Below, piece after piece: positions 39,400 through 64,000 of a stretch of 64,000 nt of DNA. This DNA is from Hormiphora californensis. Taxonomy: Eukaryota; Animalia; Ctenophora. The number at the start of each line of letters is the position of its first letter. Positions within the stretch are counted from its first letter, which is position 1. The notes beneath the pieces were generated by a model. That model saw only the letters and a program-made list of their open reading frames with translations. It ran no database searches and had not been told where the DNA came from. The translations under genes and the position numbers were made by a program. Location of the stretch: NCBI GenBank assembly GCA_020137815.1, contig CM035362.1:1798001-1862000 (forward strand), given 5' to 3'.

Positions 39400-39499
39400 N
39401 NNNNNNNNNNNNNNNNNNNNNNNNNNNNNNNNNNNNNNNNNNNNNNNNNNNNNNNNNNNNNNNNNNNNNNNNNNNNNNNNNNNNNNNNNNNNNNNNNNN
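39400..39499. other. Assembly gap (100 N)
   Basis: Run of n characters. Confidence 0.99.
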
Positions 39500-48000: not shown

Positions 48001-51000
48001 TGCCAGGAACTCGATCTCGATTATCACGCGCAAATACAACGCCACGCGACCTCTTTGAATGCGCGGCGGCCTGTCGCTTAAATAAAAAATTCGACTATAG
48101 TATGTATGCTATTCTTTCTTGTTCGAAGCAAGTTCAATATATTACTAAGAGAGAGCCTGGCAACTAAGACTATTATACGAGCAGGGTAGACGTGGGATGC
48201 GAAACCGAAATCGATGATAAATAACCACTAAAAGCGATAATACGAAGACGCATCTATATGTCTCTTTCTCCCTCTTATCCTTCAGACTAGGAGCCGGCGA
48301 TATATATCGATATCGAATGGAATATCGATATTTCGATTCGATAATATCGAATCGATATCGAATCGAGCAATTTTTTTCCCGAAATATCGAATCGATATCG
48401 AATCGAAAATTTTTCGATACCAAAATATCGAATCGATATCGAATCGAAATTTTTCGATATCAAAATATCGAATCGATATCGAATCGATTTTTTTTCGATA
48501 TCAAAATATCGAATCGATATCGAATCGAAAAATTTCGATATTAAAATATCGAATCGATATCGAATCGAAATTTTTTCGATATCAAAATATCGAATCGATA
48601 TCGAATCGATTTTTTTCGATATCAAAATATCGAATCGATATCGAATCGATTTTTTTTCGATATCAAAATATCGAATCGATATCGAATCGATTTTTTTTCG
48701 ATATCAAAATATCGAATCGATATCGAATCGAAAAATTTCGATATTAAAATATCGAATCGATATCGAATCGAAATTTTTTCGATATCAAAATATCGAATCG
48801 ATATCGAATCGAAAAATTTTCGATAACAAAATATCGAATCGATATCGAATCGAAAATTTTCGATTGTCAAAAAAAAATCGATATCGAATCGAAAAAAAAA
48901 ATCGGGATATCGCCGGCTCCTACTTCAGACACGTCACCGTGTACCACATTGAGTTCAACAAACACTAATAATAACCGCATCGGGCATCTTACATCGGGCA
49001 TCTTACACTCTCGCTATCTTTATCTCTTCCTCCCTCTCTTTCTCTCTCTCTGGTCTCTCGAACGTCTCTCGAACGTCTGCCGCAAAATAAGAAGATCATA
49101 CGAACACAGCGATCAAAACAAATCAATGGCTATCCTTGCTCTCTTTTTATCTATCAACAAACATTCGTCCTTCCCCTCACCCTTCCTTTATCAAAAAAAG
49201 GGATATTTATAAAACTGCATTCGTCTTTGTCAGTTAGAAATGAACTGTTATATCATTAGTCCTCTTTGCCAACCCCTCTTGTATTGTTATGTTCTAACCC
49301 TCCCGGGGTGCGGGAAATGGGGTCGAGCAAGGCAAACCCCCTCTTTAACCATCCTATCCACTGCAGGTCCTGTTAGAAGAAGCGGGTGTTGAGATAGCTG
49401 CAGTAACTCCCAGTACTTGTTCTTCCTGTAATGATATGGGCAACAAGATACAATCAATGGAGGATACTATTAGACAACGTGACCAACAGGTAATAATTAC
49501 TGGTTATTAATAAAGCTGGGTAATTACCCAATTAATAATTGGGTAATTAGTAATTACCCAGCTTTATTATACAATCGGACCGTGCCTAAACAATCGGACC
49601 GTGCCTATATTTACACGCCCCCACCCCCTATCATGTACCGATGTACATGGTGTCCCACTGTCTTTGCGTGACCTGTGATTTTGGGTGATGAGTGGGTTCC
49701 ATTCAAATACTCATAACTCATCGAAAAATAGGTCAAAACGGCTCAACCAAAAACAGTGTTGTGGAGAATTGTCAGGCGAACACTAGGGTACAAGATTGAT
49801 GTTCCAAGTCTTACCAACCGTCAGATATATCGTCTTAAAGTCAAAAATACGTGTTCATGAAATCCGACCGGGGTTCACGTTTTGAAAAATTCACAAATGC
49901 AAAGTTGCTCGGATCACATTGCATCCCTCATAAGAGTTGTAGGAAATTGTCTGGCGGTCATTTTGGTACCCGGGTTTTTGTCCTAGCTCAATGTTTAGAG
50001 TGTCCTATGACTGTCAGAACTGGAATTTTCACAAAAGTGGTCTCAGGTATCGCATTACATTTTGCCCTGTTATGAAGCTCATTGCTGCTTGAATAACATC
50101 TTAGTGCATGATAGGGTTGGGATAGACCACTTGCGTATCCTACACATTAACAGGGGCCTTGCCAAATCGTCATAACAACCCTGTCAAGTGTCTAGATGAA
50201 ATTGAGACGATATGTGCTGATTATCATGGGATTACACACGACACCGGGTAGCATACAATAATGCCTACGGTCAATAATGCCTACACCCTAAAACACCTAA
50301 TTAGAGGTGGAGGGTAGGCAAAACTGCTTGTAGGCATTATCGTCAACACCAGGGGGGTAAACCGCAGTTTTGCCTACGGTACATAATGCCTACCATGTAG
50401 GCAAAACTGTGATTTTACCACTGATGTTGACAATAATGCCTACCCTCCACCTGCATTGCAGTTGACAACTCGCTAAGGATATCTCGATTCGGTATATATA
50501 TTTACCGAATCGAGATATTCTTAGCGAGTTGTCAACTGCAATGCAATCTTTCATTCTCTTTTCTATCAATATTTCAATATATAGAATTAAATATAGAATT
50601 AAAACAAGCTAGTTCATTATTATAAAACTGAAATAAAACTGAAATACAACTGAATTTTACACAAGTCTGCTCAAAGATCTGCAGTAAAGGGCAAGTCCGA
50701 CAGTTCCGTAGTTGCTGATGGCTTTCTTGATCCTCTCCTCAAGGTCCCGATACTTCTTCCTCCTCTTAGCGGCAGGAACGTTCCCAGTGAGGCAGTGCTC
50801 GATGTGTAGTTCGGCCTGTTGATTGAACTGGGTCAGGGCGTCCGCCAGGAGTCCACCAGAGGGATTACTGCAACCGATGAAGCGGTTCAAGGCGTTGTTG
50901 TTCCCCTCCGAGTGGTTGTTGGTTCGGGGACCTCCGTCTAGGACTGTCTGGAACATGTTCCACATCCGAATAGGGTAGATGGGTGAAAGGATCCAGGTGG

Positions 51001-52925: not shown

Positions 52926-55900
52926 TTACGGGATATCGGCGCACCTACCACAGGTTTTGGGGCAATACGTAACAGCCAGTTCGTCCTCCTTGCACAGGGC
53001 TGGCATGCTAGCACAGTCCTTCCAAGAATCCTCACAGTCGTCCTGGAAACGAGAGGGGAGTTATAACTGGCAGTTGTTCTGGAAACGAGATAGAGAGGGG
53101 GTCATTGAGGTACACGGTAAATCGAGGTTTGGACGTTTGGTATGGCTGTTATACTACCCTTGGGACGGGTATGGCGGCGCCATACCCCATTTGACAGTGC
53201 GCTCAGATGGGGTGGCGGCGCCAGACAGTTTGGGGCCCAAATTGGTAATCAAGGGGTAACATTTCATGGTGGTACTGGTAGTTATTGAAATTATACATAT
53301 TGGTATGTAAAAGGCTGAGCGAGCGGCAATTCTGCAAGTTTGGGACTTTTAGTTTTGGTTCTGGAGCAGCAGCTGGGATTATGTATGTATACTATCAGTT
53401 GTATCAGCAGTAACGGGTTTTCTTAACCGAACCGATCGTTCGGTCGTTTCTGGTATCACTATCAGCATGGAAAACGGGCAGTATTTTCCGGTTAAAAACT
53501 GCAGCATTGTATCTGAACTGGTTTCCTTACAGGGTGCTGGGTAGGGGGTACAATGTCATCGCATCTGTCACACGACAAGGGGCAGTATTTCAGGGCAAGG
53601 TCCTCCTCTAGGCATACTCCAGGCATATATGGACAGTCAGGATGACTGTCTTTACACTCCTAACACAGACACAATTCAATGTTATTTGGCAAATTTGGGT
53701 AAGCCGCAAATGTTGTCTGGACGTCGTTCCAATGTTGTCTAGACTTGTTATTATGTTCTAGCCCTTTGTTACATTTGCGAAACACAGTCTAGCTCTGTAT
53801 GGCGGCGCCATACCCCATTTGATTCTCAGTGCGCTCAGATGGGATCGGCGGCGCCAGACAAGTCTAACTAGGCAAGTCTATACGGGTTTTTCCAACATGG
53901 GCTTGAGGCGGAGTCAAACGTGCTTGAGACGTGTTTGGCACAAGTCTGTTTCAAGCCCGTCTTAGGGAACCCCGTTACTGTTAGACGGGTACGACGGTGG
54001 AGTACTGGAGCGACGTCCAGACAACTTTTTTAGCCAATCCAAATTTCCCAGAAGTCAAATTGTGAATAGATGGTCACTTGTTGAGGGTTTTGTGGCCCAA
54101 GTCAGCAGAAATCAGAAACAGGGCAGTATTTTCCGGTTAAAAACTGCAGCATTGTATCTGAACCGGTTGCCTTACAGGGTGCTGGGTAGGGGGTACAATA
54201 TCATCGCATCTGTCACACGACAAGGGGCAGTATTTCAGGGCAAGGTCCTCCTCTAGGCATACTCCAGGCATATATGGACAGTCAGGATGACTGTCTTTAC
54301 ACTCAATATCCTAACATTATTGTGGCATATTTGTACAAAAGTGAAAAGTGAAATTTGTAAGTTGGTTGAGCTAGAACTTCTAGAAGTCAGGTTTAGCAAT
54401 TCTCTTACCGTGGGTGGCTCGGGGGCTGCAGTGGTTGGTCCTGCAGTGGTTGGGGAATCAGTGGTTGGGGAATCAGTGGTTGGGGCAGTGCCAGTAGTGG
54501 GCTCTACAGTTGTTGGAGCAGCGGTGGTTGGGGCTCGGGTAGGAGGGTCAAAAGGGCATTCAGGTACATTCTCAGGCCAGTCACAAACTTGTTCCTCTTC
54601 GTTGAACCAGAGCTCTGGGTTATCCTGGAAATTAGGAATTAATTAGCTGATTAGTAATACTTGGAATTTTAATTGGGGATCAACAAGTGAAGTCAACTTC
54701 TATTACTAAATCACGGTGAATGTGTTCCTATTTATCTCATACTATGAGTCATATTCTTCCTAAATTCTATCATACCGGGCAAGTCAGGTGGAAGAGACGA
54801 CCGTTGAAGCACCTGTAAAACCTGTTACAATCCTCCTTGTCCAAAAACCGACCATCTTTCTTGCAGTCCAGCGGGTTTTCTGTGGGCCCTTGGGTTGTGG
54901 GCTCGACTACCGTGGTGGGTTCAGGAGTTGTGGGTTCAGGGGTTGTAGGTTCAGGAGTCGTAGGTTCAGGAGTAGTAGGTTCAGGTGTTGTAGGTTCAGG
55001 GGTTGTGGGCTCAGGAGTCGTAGGTTCAGGAGTCGTAGGTTCAGGAGTCGTAGGTTCGGGAGTCGTGGGCTCAGGAGTCGTAGGGGCGTCAGTAGGAGCG
55101 TCAGTAGGGGCGTCAGTGGGGGCGTCAGTGGGAGCATCAGTAGGGGCGTCAGTGGGAGCATCAGTAGGGGCGTCAGTGGGAGCAGGAGTGGGAGCATCAG
55201 TAGGGGCAGGAGTGGGAGCATCAGTAGGGGCAGGAGTGGGAGCATCAGTAGGGGCAGGAGTGGGAGCATCAGTAGGGGCGTCAGTAGGGGCAGGAGTGGG
55301 AGGGTCCAAGGGGCACTCAGGTACATTCTCAGGCCAGTCACAGACTTGGGCTCCCTCGTTAAACCAAAGACCATCCTGGGAGAGGATATTGGTGAATGTA
55401 TATGAAGCATTTTAATTTATGCTAACACTGTTACTAACACTGTTAGAGGCCAGAGACTCCTGTTTGTTAGTAACAGACAAGAGTCAGTGGCCTCTCACTT
55501 CGACTTATAGGACAGGGCCCCTTTGCATTGCTTGACGAGGCGCCCTTACAGGATACCCCCAGATACCCCCCGATACGTACAGGGCAGGGCATGTGATGTT
55601 TCTGCTCACCCACACACCACCAGTATTTGTTGCAGTCAATCTTGTCCAGGAACATCCCATCCCCGGGACAAACAAACTCACACTCTGGAACATTCTCAGG
55701 CCAATCACATTGTCCCTTTGCCTCGTTGAAGTACAGAATCGGATCCGTCTGAATTGGAGTTTGTTAGGGGTTGCGACTTGTTGGTAGTTGGTAATGGAAT
55801 TTTATTTTCAGGGGTTGGGACTAGAATTGGGTTCTTGGAGTTGGATAGTTCAACACCACCAGACAGCTATTCACAACTCACCGGGCAAGGCATATCAAAG

Positions 55901-56331
55901 ACTCCAGTTTGGTCGCACACCCAGTACCGGTTACAATCGTCTGGGTTCCTGAACCACCCGTCACCAGGACACTCGAATGCGGTTGCCATGACAACCATGA
56001 GAGATGCCAACACGATCTAAGGAGGGGGATGGGTGAGAGAGTGACATCTGTCTGTCTAGTCTAAGTCAGGAAAACCCTGTCTAGCGTAGCCAGACCCCGC
56101 TTTGATCGGGTCGGCTTTGCCAGACTGGGATCACCTGACCGCTCCGTTCAGATTCTGGTGATTGCTGACGCCGCAGACCCCGTCTTTAGTGTACTCAGAA
56201 CGGTGCTGCGGCGCCTCACAATTCTCCGTTTCTGTCTGGCAGACAGCTCCGTTTGAAGACGGAGGTCGGAGTTCAATTTTAGGGTTTTGAGAGAAAAGGT
56301 CGATTTTATTGTTTTATTTCCTAACCTTCAT
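52926..56331 (-). CDS. Secreted peritrophin-like protein: 3x CBM14 chitin-binding, Thr/Pro mucin repeats, C-terminal ShKT (exons 56331-56326, 56016-55882, 55748-55581, 55375-54776, 54624-54409, 53042-52926)
   Basis: Signal peptide MKIVLASLMVVMATA. Three six-Cys units C..DG.F....DCN.Y..C......CP...L.FNE....CDWPENVPEC, plus (PTDA)n and (PTTPE)n tracts. The last exon is CEDSWKDCASMPALCKEDELAVTYCPKTCGRC. All introns are phase 0. Confidence 0.9.
53476..54305. repeat. Direct duplication of about 185 bp (53476-53660 and 54121-54305)
   Basis: Two near-identical copies of GGGCAGTATTTTCCGG...GTCTTTACACTC in one intron. Confidence 0.9.
53795..53858. mobile_element. Hairpin mini-repeat family of about 60 bp (also near 34021, 52357, 53170, 56165)
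   Basis: TGGCGGCGCCATACCCCAT...CAGTGCGCTCAGATGGGG..GGCGGCGCCA recurs five times in the window. Confidence 0.7.
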
Positions 56332-57269: not shown

Positions 57270-60826
<3,557 letters not shown>

Positions 60827-61417
60827 TTAGTTGAATATTGAATACTATCCCTCTTTGACGCTCCCTGATCCCTGTCGTAAACCCTCCCTAAACCATCTAA
60901 TCTAAATTCTGCTGAAACTTTTAAAACTTGATATGACACCTCAATTCAACCAAACCCTGATATTTTCAGATTTCTACAACTATAATAACAGTCCAGTAAT
61001 ACACGGCCCGCTGCTACTAAATTCTAAAATCTCACTCTCCTTCTCACACTGTGTAATAGATGGGAATAGTTAATTGTAAGATAATGCCCTGTCATCAAAT
61101 CAACCCTCTACAACACCCCCACCAGCAGAACACTGTTTTATTTCTTTTTTAATCCAACCTCCCCCTGTCACAACTAGAGAATCATACTGTTATTCTAACC
61201 CCCAGGTTTGTTATGTTTTTCATTTATAAAAGAGGGGCGCTGAGAGAGGATCGAACAAGGCAATCCCCTAAAACGGATAGAATTCTGAATTTGAAGCCCT
61301 TCATTGGACCCAAGTACAATTGTTTTTGTTTGTTTTGTTAAGTACACATAATGAACATTTATACATCCAACAATTGTGCTCTCTTTCTCTCTTTCTCTCT
61401 TTCTCTCTTTCTCTCTT

Positions 61418-61483
<66 letters not shown>

Positions 61484-61897
61484 ACCACACCGTTCTATAA
61501 TTGTACCCAAATTGTTGCTGGTGCTATTTTGGAAGAAATGTGTGTCTCCTGTTATGTCAACAACACACACACAAGGTGATCTCACCCCATTTGATCGGTT
61601 TTCTCTTTGAGTCTGGACCTTGTTAACGTGGCTGAATTAGTTTTCTTGTTCAATTAAACTTGTTTTCTTGGTAAATATAGTTGGTTGTGATAGATTCCCA
61701 CTTGTTCAGAGGAAAGGAAAAGCAATTATTTGTTTACTTTCTATTCTGTTTACTTTCTATTCTGAAGTTTTGAATAATCGTATTTGATCGGTTTCAACAG
61801 TTTGTTTGATTCATTGATCGTCCTATAGCGGCCTAAACACCAGTTTATTTCCCTCTATCTCTCTATCCCTCTCTCCAGGTATGTTGGTGTTAGTGAT

Positions 61898-63885
61898 ATG
61901 GTGAAATATGTATTACCCCTGACGACCCTCATCACTTCTCTACTCCTCCTTCTTCCCGGGCAACATGCCAACATTTGTAGCAGCAACCCCAACATAAAGG
62001 CATCCGGGGTTAAAACTTATAATCAGGTAGGGATGTGTATTGTGTAACCATGGTAACCTAGAGATAACACCGTAAGTGTGTAACCATGGTAACCAAAAGT
62101 TACCCTCCCCATGATCATTATTCCCGCAGGATGAAAAAACGTATGTCGATGAGACGAAGATATCTTTTAAAATTGGCCTAGATGAGACAGTATGCTTTGA
62201 GATACGCGAGAAAAATGCATACACCCCAAAGGAGGTGTTCAGGTATGTTACCATGGCAATCTTTTCAATGCCCAAATAAGGACAAAAAGGGATATTTTAC
62301 AACCTAATAAGGTCATTGATTTCACAGGATATCCTTCTTGGATGTGGATAGCATCTTCACCTACAAGAACTCGTATGACTTTGCAATAGCTGAGAGTCAC
62401 GTGACGTGTGTCTGTGATTGCCCGGGTATGGAAGACCAGTGTTCACCGATCCGACAGAGTTGTAAGGAGGAAGAGGACCAGTCGCATTTGTGTTGGAACT
62501 TTTATAAAGGTTTGTACTGCGATCAATATATCAGATATTGATACCAACTACTACGGAAAATAACCGGGAAATAACCACTACCGATAATTACTAACCACTC
62601 GGGGTAACTAATGGTTACTAACCACTCGCTCCCGGTAACCACTGGTTACTAACCACTCACCAGTATTGCCCTATTTCAGGTGATCAATCATCTGAGGGAT
62701 GTGGAGTATTTGAGACGATGGGGTCTGCCGAGGTTTGCTGTGCTGTTGATTTTACACCATTCCTGGGTCAAACATACAAAGCATTCCAGGTTTGTCTTTG
62801 CACATTTATCTGTGTAGTACTTGTGAGCGAGGGCGCTGGTAAGGGTTCGGCAGAGCAAGTCCTTTTTTTGAAAGCTTATGTGACATCCTAATATGATCTG
62901 TTACAGGTTACCACCCCAACAACTCGGGGTAAGTTTGTCTTTGAAACCCGGACCAGTAACATCACCAACACCTTCTCGACTAACTTGGATAAGGCCAGCA
63001 AGAAGTTTATTGACCAGGATACCGCCATCTCATTTGAAACACCAGGTAGGGAACCTGCGACAGCTGAAACCCATACTAAGTTAATTCCATCAGCCAGCTT
63101 TCTGCTAGACTTCCTGGCCCTCTCCCGCTGTGCATGATACTAACATGACCCTGAGACCCTCGTTGGGTTTTCTACTACTACTGCTAAATCATGTTGTCAG
63201 GTTCCTCTGTTGCAATACCAGATGGGTGGTACTACGGGGCTCTGAACACCAACGAAGTACTAACCAATGTCCAGATTAATGGACTTAACGAGTGGAAGCT
63301 GAACAAGTTGGGCTGGCTGAAGTATGGACCGGACGGAAAGTTGAAATATAGCGAGAGTGAGGTTTCAAAGGTAACGATACTTGTACTTTGAGTTAGTTTT
63401 TAGTGCACTTGGCTGCCCGTAACGCAGCATATGAGGTGCACTTCGCACGCCGGAAAGGGAAAGGTAGCGAGCACCAGTTGACTTTTTTCACGATCCTTCC
63501 ACAGACGTTTTCTGCGGAGGCAACCAGCTGTCCTAACAACTTGATGAAGGTTGACTTTAGTTCCCCGTACGCTAACAGAGAGATTACGGAATCTCAGAGA
63601 CTCGATCAGTTCTTTCAAAGCACAATACGGTAACTTTATATAGAATCACTATCTTTCTCTATCTCTATCTCTATCTCTATCTCTATCTCTATCTCTATCT
63701 CTATGTTTTGGCAGGAAGGTAGTGAGGGAGGACGACCGCCGACATTTTCTGGTGTACTTTAGAAGTTTTGAGAAGCTGAATGTCCAGTTGACACTGCGTA
63801 ATGAGTATACGGTAGTACCCCATAAGTATGAAAGTGCCTTTACTAGCTTTACTGGAGCTGCACTACTGGATAAACACTCCAACAG
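61898..63885 (+). CDS. EFF-1/AFF-1 family (fusexin, class II) cell-cell fusogen, 5' part; exons 61898-62026, 62130-62242, 62328-62509, 62680-62789, 62907-63045, 63201-63370, 63505-63629, 63715-63885; continues beyond the window
   Basis: Signal peptide MVKYVLPLTTLITSLLLLLPGQHA. Motifs are colinear with C. elegans EFF-1 as I recall it: FKIGLDETVCF, YDFAIAESHVTCVCDC, LCWNFYKGDQSSEGC, VCCAVDFTPFLGQTYKAF, DGWYY, NGLNEWKLNKLGWLK, FTGAALLDKHSNR. All seven introns are GT-AG and phase-consistent. Confidence 0.88.
63648..63703. repeat. (CTATCT)n microsatellite
   Basis: Hexamer tandem repeat in a fusogen intron. Confidence 0.9.
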
Positions 63886-64000
63886 GTAAGATAAGTCCTT
63901 ATATGGTAGGAATCTCCTAATATGGGCAGAAATATATTGCCATTTAAGGTCATGATCTTCATAAACAAGGGCCAGGAAGAGATAATATTCTACATAATAT

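Follow-up and report, generated by a model that had tools for sequence, protein, structure and literature searches.

The window analyzed here (the whole 64,000-nucleotide stretch of Hormiphora californensis contig CM035362.1, positions 1,798,001 to 1,862,000) carries toward its right-hand end a multi-exon gene of the EFF/AFF family of somatic fusexins. Within it, the translation of positions 62697–62741 on the forward strand reads GCGVFETMGSAEVCC, directly preceded by DQSSE, and opens with GCGVF, a motif resembling the fusion loop of flavivirus envelope (E) proteins. No other GCG-x-F occurs in any of the window's six frames; a GCGKW match at 49306 is unrelated. The interpretation that we favor, with moderate confidence, is that the loop is a retained weak membrane anchor in a ctenophore-clade EFF/AFF class II fusogen whose fusion is bilateral, i.e., calls for a fusexin on both cells.

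Gene model, orthologues and fold

Splice signals, an open frame and homology allowed eight exons to be joined into 379 stop-free codons (Table 1), and the gene extends past the end of the window. All of its introns are GT-AG and 85–170 nt long, with seven of them within 2 kb. Searched singly, four of the eight exons matched Pfam PF14884 (EFF-AFF), namely exon 3 (E-value 7e-7, which exceeds the curated cut-off) and exons 4, 6 and 8 (see Table 1), while exons 1, 2, 5 and 7 gave no match to this domain. A search with exon 3 retrieved P0001 (63% identity over this exon) and P0002, and the P0001 cluster contains the Mnemiopsis leidyi protein KAL5246729.1 (P0003, 677 aa), which is identical to the window protein at 180 of 362 aligned residues (50%) and matches C. 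elegans EFF-1 with an E-value of 8e-23. The start codon and signal peptide of exon 1 are predicted from the sequence and its resemblance to the P0003 N-terminus, and the remaining domain III, stem, transmembrane helix and tail would fall outside the window (P0003 has a predicted helix at 503–536). The RNA run returned one 33-base partial match, in exon 1, which is too little to be informative.

Several other origins of the motif could be rejected: a chance non-coding match, since it lies in coding exon 4 of a spliced gene; a pseudogene, as judged within the window; and a recent endogenous viral envelope gene, given the seven GT-AG introns in 2 kb and the orthologues in other ctenophores. Viral contigs yielded 49 pattern matches, none of which encodes a relative.

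The window gene is an ordinary member of the EFF/AFF family. Its cysteines C65, C108/110/112, C119, C126, C136, C149 and C161/162 occupy near-invariant columns of a 72-sequence alignment, and it shares with EFF-1 and AFF-1 (PF14884; PDB 4OJC, 4OJD, 4OJE, 4CYL) both the cysteine frame (CxCxC, GC, CC) and the 12-residue spacing from c strand to loop, although overall identity to EFF-1 is about 20%. When the loop was masked for tree building, a 62-row FastTree and a 42-row IQ-TREE under LG+G4, both unrooted, each placed the window protein beside P0002 and P0003 (support 99), nested among Bolinopsis, Mnemiopsis and Pleurobrachia paralogues (clade support 91–92). EFF/AFF-like genes have already been recorded in ctenophores (PMC6504885).

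To place the fold, P0003 was modeled with AlphaFold2 from the 72-sequence alignment (mean predicted local distance difference test score, pLDDT, 79), and the model suggests the three-domain class II architecture and single membrane helix of EFF-1 and AFF-1. EFF-1 was its best structural match (Z 31.1, root-mean-square deviation 2.5 Å over 414–418 residues), followed by the Gc proteins of the nematode endogenous Atlas virus and of phleboviruses and bandaviruses (PDB 6EGU, 5G47, 7A4A; Z 18.6–20.6), and at lower scores by HAP2 (Z about 16) and alphavirus E1 (Z 13–15). Flavivirus E is farther away than phlebovirus-type Gc, being absent from the 50 entries listed for the model (Z 12.9 and above) and ranking 38–40 in Foldseek. 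Leads from the ESM Atlas were all under 0.9 for P0003, with EFF-AFF first and flavivirus E second, and P0036 gave no usable lead there. The initial annotation had cast the protein as a possible intermediate between viral and somatic fusexins, which is not supported; with Z 31 to EFF-1 against about 20 to the best viral Gc, it is instead a plain EFF/AFF member.

Family membership in itself would also accommodate a homologue that no longer fuses plasma membranes and serves in adhesion, membrane shaping or vesicle fission, in which case the loop would say nothing about fusion mode. The literature search found no functional data on any ctenophore member, which would fit this reading, as would the several diverged paralogue types of ctenophores. 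We nevertheless consider it very unlikely, as the frame is intact, the cysteines are conserved, the orthologue has a complete predicted class II ectodomain and membrane helix, and the nerve nets of ctenophores are syncytial and the animals also fuse after injury.

Table 1. Exons and cd-loop elements of the EFF/AFF gene, in window coordinates
Feature	Position	Strand	Content
Exon 1	61898..62026	+	ATG, hydrophobic signal-peptide-like N-terminus, C27 as first Cys; open frame, GT donor
Exon 2	62130..62242	+	Domain I strands, ETVCF; alignable to P0003
Exon 3	62328..62509	+	b strand CVCDCP, bc loop, c strand; C136 at 62491-62493
Phase-1 intron at c strand / cd loop boundary	62510..62679	+	GT...AG, 170 nt
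Exon 4	62680..62789	+	cd loop and d strand; PF14884 E 8e-5
N-terminal half of cd loop, polar/acidic	62682..62696	+	D143-Q-S-S-E147; gapless against yellow fever E
Flavivirus-like motif at cd-loop tip	62697..62711	+	G148-C149-G150-V151-F152
Segment after the motif, with strand-d cysteines	62712..62741	+	E153-T-M155-G-S-A-E-V, then family C161-C162 on strand d
Exon 5	62907..63045	+	Alignable to P0003
Exon 6	63201..63370	+	Family motifs GWYY, NEW, LGW; PF14884 E 2e-5
Exon 7	63505..63629	+	Contains C290; alignable to P0003
Exon 8	63715..63885	+	Ends LLDKHSN; PF14884 E 1e-3

The cd loop and its viral counterparts

A search of 1.84 billion representatives returned 118 family members, and a profile search for additional named members gave six proteins, none of them new. 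Our collection of 147 sequences (146 proteins plus the window model) was reduced by 16 near-identical cluster mates to 131, and the cd loop could be parsed in 66 of these, the other 65 being fragments or lacking the CxCxC...CC pattern. Loop positions are numbered below from the loop Cys (C149 in the window protein).

Structurally, the motif of P0003 (GCGLF) is coil in loop 141–153 of the model, between strands 132–140 and 154–164 (pLDDT 87 and 95 in those blocks). The EFF-1 segment GCSEDDIPKLCC can be aligned to this loop, as TPIGCS---EDDIPKLCC. Counting from the Cys, the E-D-D of EFF-1 stands opposite V151-F152-E153 of the window protein and L-F-S of P0003; in EFF-1, EDD 157–159 is the tip that faces the membrane (PMC4050280). 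The window loop is three residues longer than that of EFF-1 and non-polar (GVFETMG vs. SEDDIPK). Two statements of the initial annotation are thereby borne out, namely that GCGVF lies at the cd-loop position of a fusogen and that the equivalent EFF-1 loop is acidic. The conservation among ctenophore orthologues that it had proposed as a check was also found: GCG(L/V)F is kept in P0001–P0003 and P0006–P0008, and the fragment P0118 (DGCGLFGP) shares up to six identical residues with the flavivirus loop (GCGLFG).

The register of this loop with that of flavivirus E (yellow fever E, PDB 9B6V, 6IW0) is gapless, as Cys-x12-Cys-G-(L/V)-F. The c-strand Cys is separated from the loop Cys by 12 residues in 52 of 58 family members, as in yellow fever E, and the shared register is thus real and family-wide. 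The spelling is a different matter. Sister paralogues read GCTAF, GCLPF, SCGIG and GC(V/I)W, so the exact GCG(L/V)F is limited to one orthologous group, and, to judge from the paralogues with GCTAF, GCLPF and GC(V/I)W, it is probably in part convergent with flaviviruses. Of the five letters, just three carry information: the parsing of the loops makes the Cys invariant, and a Gly directly precedes it in 58 of the 66 loops. Against background, these three (G-[LIVM]-F after the loop Cys) would be expected at about 6e-4 per loop, which amounts to about 0.04 for some 60 sequences before other matchable viral motifs are counted. As to the caution of the initial annotation that a five-residue match could be chance, the letter-for-letter likeness may be partly convergent; the motif is conserved and in register.

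By sequence alone, the link to flaviviruses is weak. The gapless alignment of P0118 to yellow fever E CKRTYSDRGWGNGCGLFGK has an E-value of 1.6, the others are worse, and the family profile reached about 0.7, none of which is significant alone; flavivirus E was absent from the results of a fragment-based family profile at E-values up to 10, and exon 4 alone matched nothing relevant in the PDB.

A second viral parallel, drawn by the initial annotation between GCGVF and the phlebovirus GCGCF, is probably two residues out of register, because the apex Phe of phlebovirus-type Gc directly follows the braced Cys (G-C-F; G134-C135-F136 in Atlas Gc, where this Cys is disulfide-bonded, PMC9094657). In the window protein the Phe is at +3, and the two proteins are about 10% identical; which Gc Cys corresponds to the window loop Cys is our inference. 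What the two would have in common is a disulfide-braced cd loop bearing an apex Phe, on a protein that in phleboviruses is viral, low-pH-triggered and unilateral.

In chemistry, the window loop departs from the flavivirus one, whose fusion motif is DRGWGNGCGLFGKG (PMC8419435). It has neither the Trp nor the Gly-rich N-terminal half, GDQSSE replacing DRGWGN, and its motif is flanked by the acids D143, E147 and E153, the last directly after the Phe. The flavivirus Trp is a principal anchor of that loop; its position is taken in the window protein by S145 (62688–62690), and none of the 66 family loops has a Trp at -4. On an interfacial hydrophobicity scale (D and E taken as charged), the five residues after the Cys sum to +1.11 for the window protein, -1.10 for P0003, -0.68 for yellow fever E and +4.30 for EFF-1.

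Such a loop could also be non-polar for reasons other than lipid: V151 and its neighbors might pack on the loops bc and ij, make up the tip of the trimer or mediate contact with a partner protein or a receptor, the viral likeness reflecting convergence on a hairpin constrained by Gly and Cys. The family-wide GC, the variation of the loop among ctenophore paralogues, the unfavorable net interfacial energy of the window loop and a short helical turn at 149–151 of the P0003 model all suit this explanation, as does a nearest viral fold (phlebovirus-type Gc, Z about 20) that is not the one with the similar loop. The position of the loop, by contrast, is that of the membrane-facing tip of EFF-1 (PMC4050280) and of the fusion loops of viral Gc, HAP2 and Fsx1, and aromatic residues recur at +1 to +4 across separate branches of the family, which leads us to rate a role away from lipid as rather unlikely.

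Loop variation and mode of fusion

Across the family, the five positions after the loop Cys include an aromatic residue in 31 of 66 loops, at least two hydrophobic residues in 32 and at least two D/E in only 8, so that an acidic cd loop, often quoted for the family, is a trait of EFF-1 rather than one that defines the family. An EED as in EFF-1 occurs in a single loop, that of the EFF-1 orthologue P0040 (751 bits to EFF-1). Non-polar loops among named sequences include GCGLF and GCVWIT in Mnemiopsis, GCIWVT in Pleurobrachia, GCTAFL in Bolinopsis microptera, GCAVYW in Branchiostoma lanceolatum, GCLFFT in Tachypleus tridentatus and GCPLSFL in Holothuria leucospilota. The last four species stem from ten clusters queried for names, of which four gave one. 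Phe at +3 is rarer (7 of 66 loops, six from the ctenophore clade and one from a horseshoe crab).

Both trees recovered a clade containing P0040 (support 99 and 100). Of the 58 tree rows whose loop could be parsed, 5 of 29 within this clade vs. 25 of 29 outside it have at least two hydrophobic residues in the first five positions after the Cys, the latter made up of all nine in the ctenophore clade and 16 of the 20 others. A hydrophobic loop unique to the window gene can thus be rejected. The simplest reading, as the loops of viral Gc, HAP2 and Fsx1 are non-polar too, is that a non-polar tip would be the ancestral state of the family and that a polar or acidic tip would have arisen once, in the EFF-1-containing clade. 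Whether the loop had been retained or regained was left open by the initial annotation; the occurrence of non-polar loops in most deep branches of the unrooted tree favors retention, and regain fits less well.

How such a tip might act can be outlined from EFF-1 and the other fusexins. C149, putatively disulfide-tied to the bc loop, would present V151, F152 and M155 at the tip of domain II, and their side chains may dip into the outer leaflet, presumably to a smaller depth than those of a viral loop, given the lack of a Trp at -4 and the flanking acids D143, E147 and E153. As the protein trimerizes and its stem and domain III fold back, the membranes would be drawn together, as in EFF-1. With a weak anchor the barrier to fusion might be lower, yet fusion would stay two-sided, like that of AtHAP2 and Fsx1, and would probably still depend on a fusexin on the opposing cell.

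The two-sided character of this proposal comes from cellular fusexins whose domain II tip is non-polar like that of the window gene. AtHAP2 has a hydrophobic cd loop and nevertheless gave 2% mixing with naive cells vs. 35% multinucleation in baby hamster kidney (BHK) cells (PMC5350521), and in archaeal Fsx1 an uncharged loop is required for fusion that is bilateral in BHK cells (PMC9259645). Mutation of the fusion loop abolished binding or fusion in viral Gc, HAP2 and Fsx1 (PMC9259645, PMC9094657). In function, HAP2 and Fsx1 probably offer the closest analogy, since their loop is important and their fusion is nonetheless bilateral in cultured cells, although they belong to different families and the cd loop of HAP2 runs to about 40 residues with helices. 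As one review puts it, interaction with a membrane does not imply unilateral action (PMC6504885).

The initial annotation had gone from a hydrophobic loop to unilateral fusion, a step that we find unsupported given the bilateral AtHAP2 and Fsx1, the missing Trp and the acidic flanks. A virus-like fusogen with GCG(V/L)F firmly inserted in the opposite membrane, able to fuse cells that do not express it, could draw on the gapless register and six-residue identity described above, on the Phe at +3 being kept in six of the seven rows of the ctenophore sub-clade, and on the same review, which lists Chlamydomonas HAP2 as unilateral and suggests a weak unilateral activity of FF proteins through amphipathic insertion (PMC6504885). 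On balance we judge it unlikely. Still less probable is the broader scenario in which ctenophore EFF/AFF proteins keep a virus-type inserting loop and fuse one-sidedly, the bilateral rule of nematodes derives from loss of that loop, and the family builds or repairs the syncytial nerve net.

Several observations weigh against a retained membrane anchor. The window loop is middling for the family in its interfacial hydrophobicity sum (rank 36 of 66), and over positions -5 to +5 it totals +3.98 kcal/mol, and P0003 +3.21, vs. -2.08 for yellow fever E. The structural model is that of the Mnemiopsis orthologue, 50% identical to the window protein, rather than of the window protein itself, and both the exposure of the tip and the disulfides are putative. 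As to ancestry, the trees are unrooted with long branches, support at their deep forks is weak (86, or the fork drawn open), most of their rows carry no taxon name, and the clade counts describe a pattern rather than independent trials because the sequences are related. Finally, F or W directly follows the loop Cys in 7 of 66 loops, six of which are in or resemble the EFF-1-containing "polar" clade, which is therefore not uniformly polar. Phe or Trp at +1 is the register of phlebovirus-type Gc.

The notion of somatic fusexins as lacking a hydrophobic fusion loop rests on a single structure, that of C. elegans EFF-1, and the sources that discuss the EFF-1 loop, in the passages concerned, call it acidic (PMC4050280 and PMC5350521 among them). 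Our survey suggests that it is EFF-1 that stands apart, whereas a non-polar tip matching viral loops in register has been kept by most other branches, foremost the ctenophores. Among titles and opening abstracts we found no paper that deals with a ctenophore fusogen or with cd loops of EFF/AFF proteins from outside the nematodes; such loops may be visible already in the alignments of Perez-Vargas 2014 and Avinoam 2011, or in the supplement of PMC5350521 with its Branchiostoma and Naegleria models. These natural variants would allow a direct test of whether the loop decides between one- and two-sided fusion, and the survey is also relevant to the viral origin that has been proposed for genes like EFF-1. 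Ctenophores are described as having syncytial nerve nets and as able to fuse when injured, in passages that name no ctenophore fusogen, and we put forward the hypothesis that the window gene and its paralogues are candidate fusogens for both.

Other relatives and flanking sequence

The ctenophore clade comprises about four paralogue types (P0003, P0010, P0025 and P0009), with non-polar loops throughout, and the Mnemiopsis genes G018820 and G018899 probably lie on one contig (11,662,019 bp for each). The 72-sequence alignment held no stretch conserved enough for contig scanning, and the metagenome contig scan gave two loci, with no additional ctenophore locus among them. One of these, L002, was rejected as a relative, being a chance match in an unrelated frame of a bacterial-looking gene. 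The other (L001, positions 137–2015 of a 2,142-bp contig) is the intronless EFF/AFF-like gene of P0033, with its C-terminal part in a different frame. P0033, P0028 and P0031 form a clade whose cysteines near the cd loop are arranged differently, CC being absent.

Elsewhere in the window, a run of 100 N at 39400–39499 marks an assembly gap. On the reverse strand, exons at 54770–56016 encode Cys-spaced repeats, which we take to be akin to chitin-binding modules, around a tract of repeats rich in Pro and Thr. Two stretches of about 300 bp at about 58360–59030 are apparent reverse complements with similar translations on opposite strands, and are possibly a small inverted-repeat element. Several reverse-strand exons at 59015–60826 encode heptads of the YSPTSPS type (24 matches), which resemble the C-terminal domain of the largest subunit of RNA polymerase II. 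The highest exon of this gene starts at an AG acceptor near 60810, and no polymerase-like exon was seen by eye in 60830–64000, so that the EFF/AFF gene may be nested, in antisense, within an intron of the polymerase-like gene.
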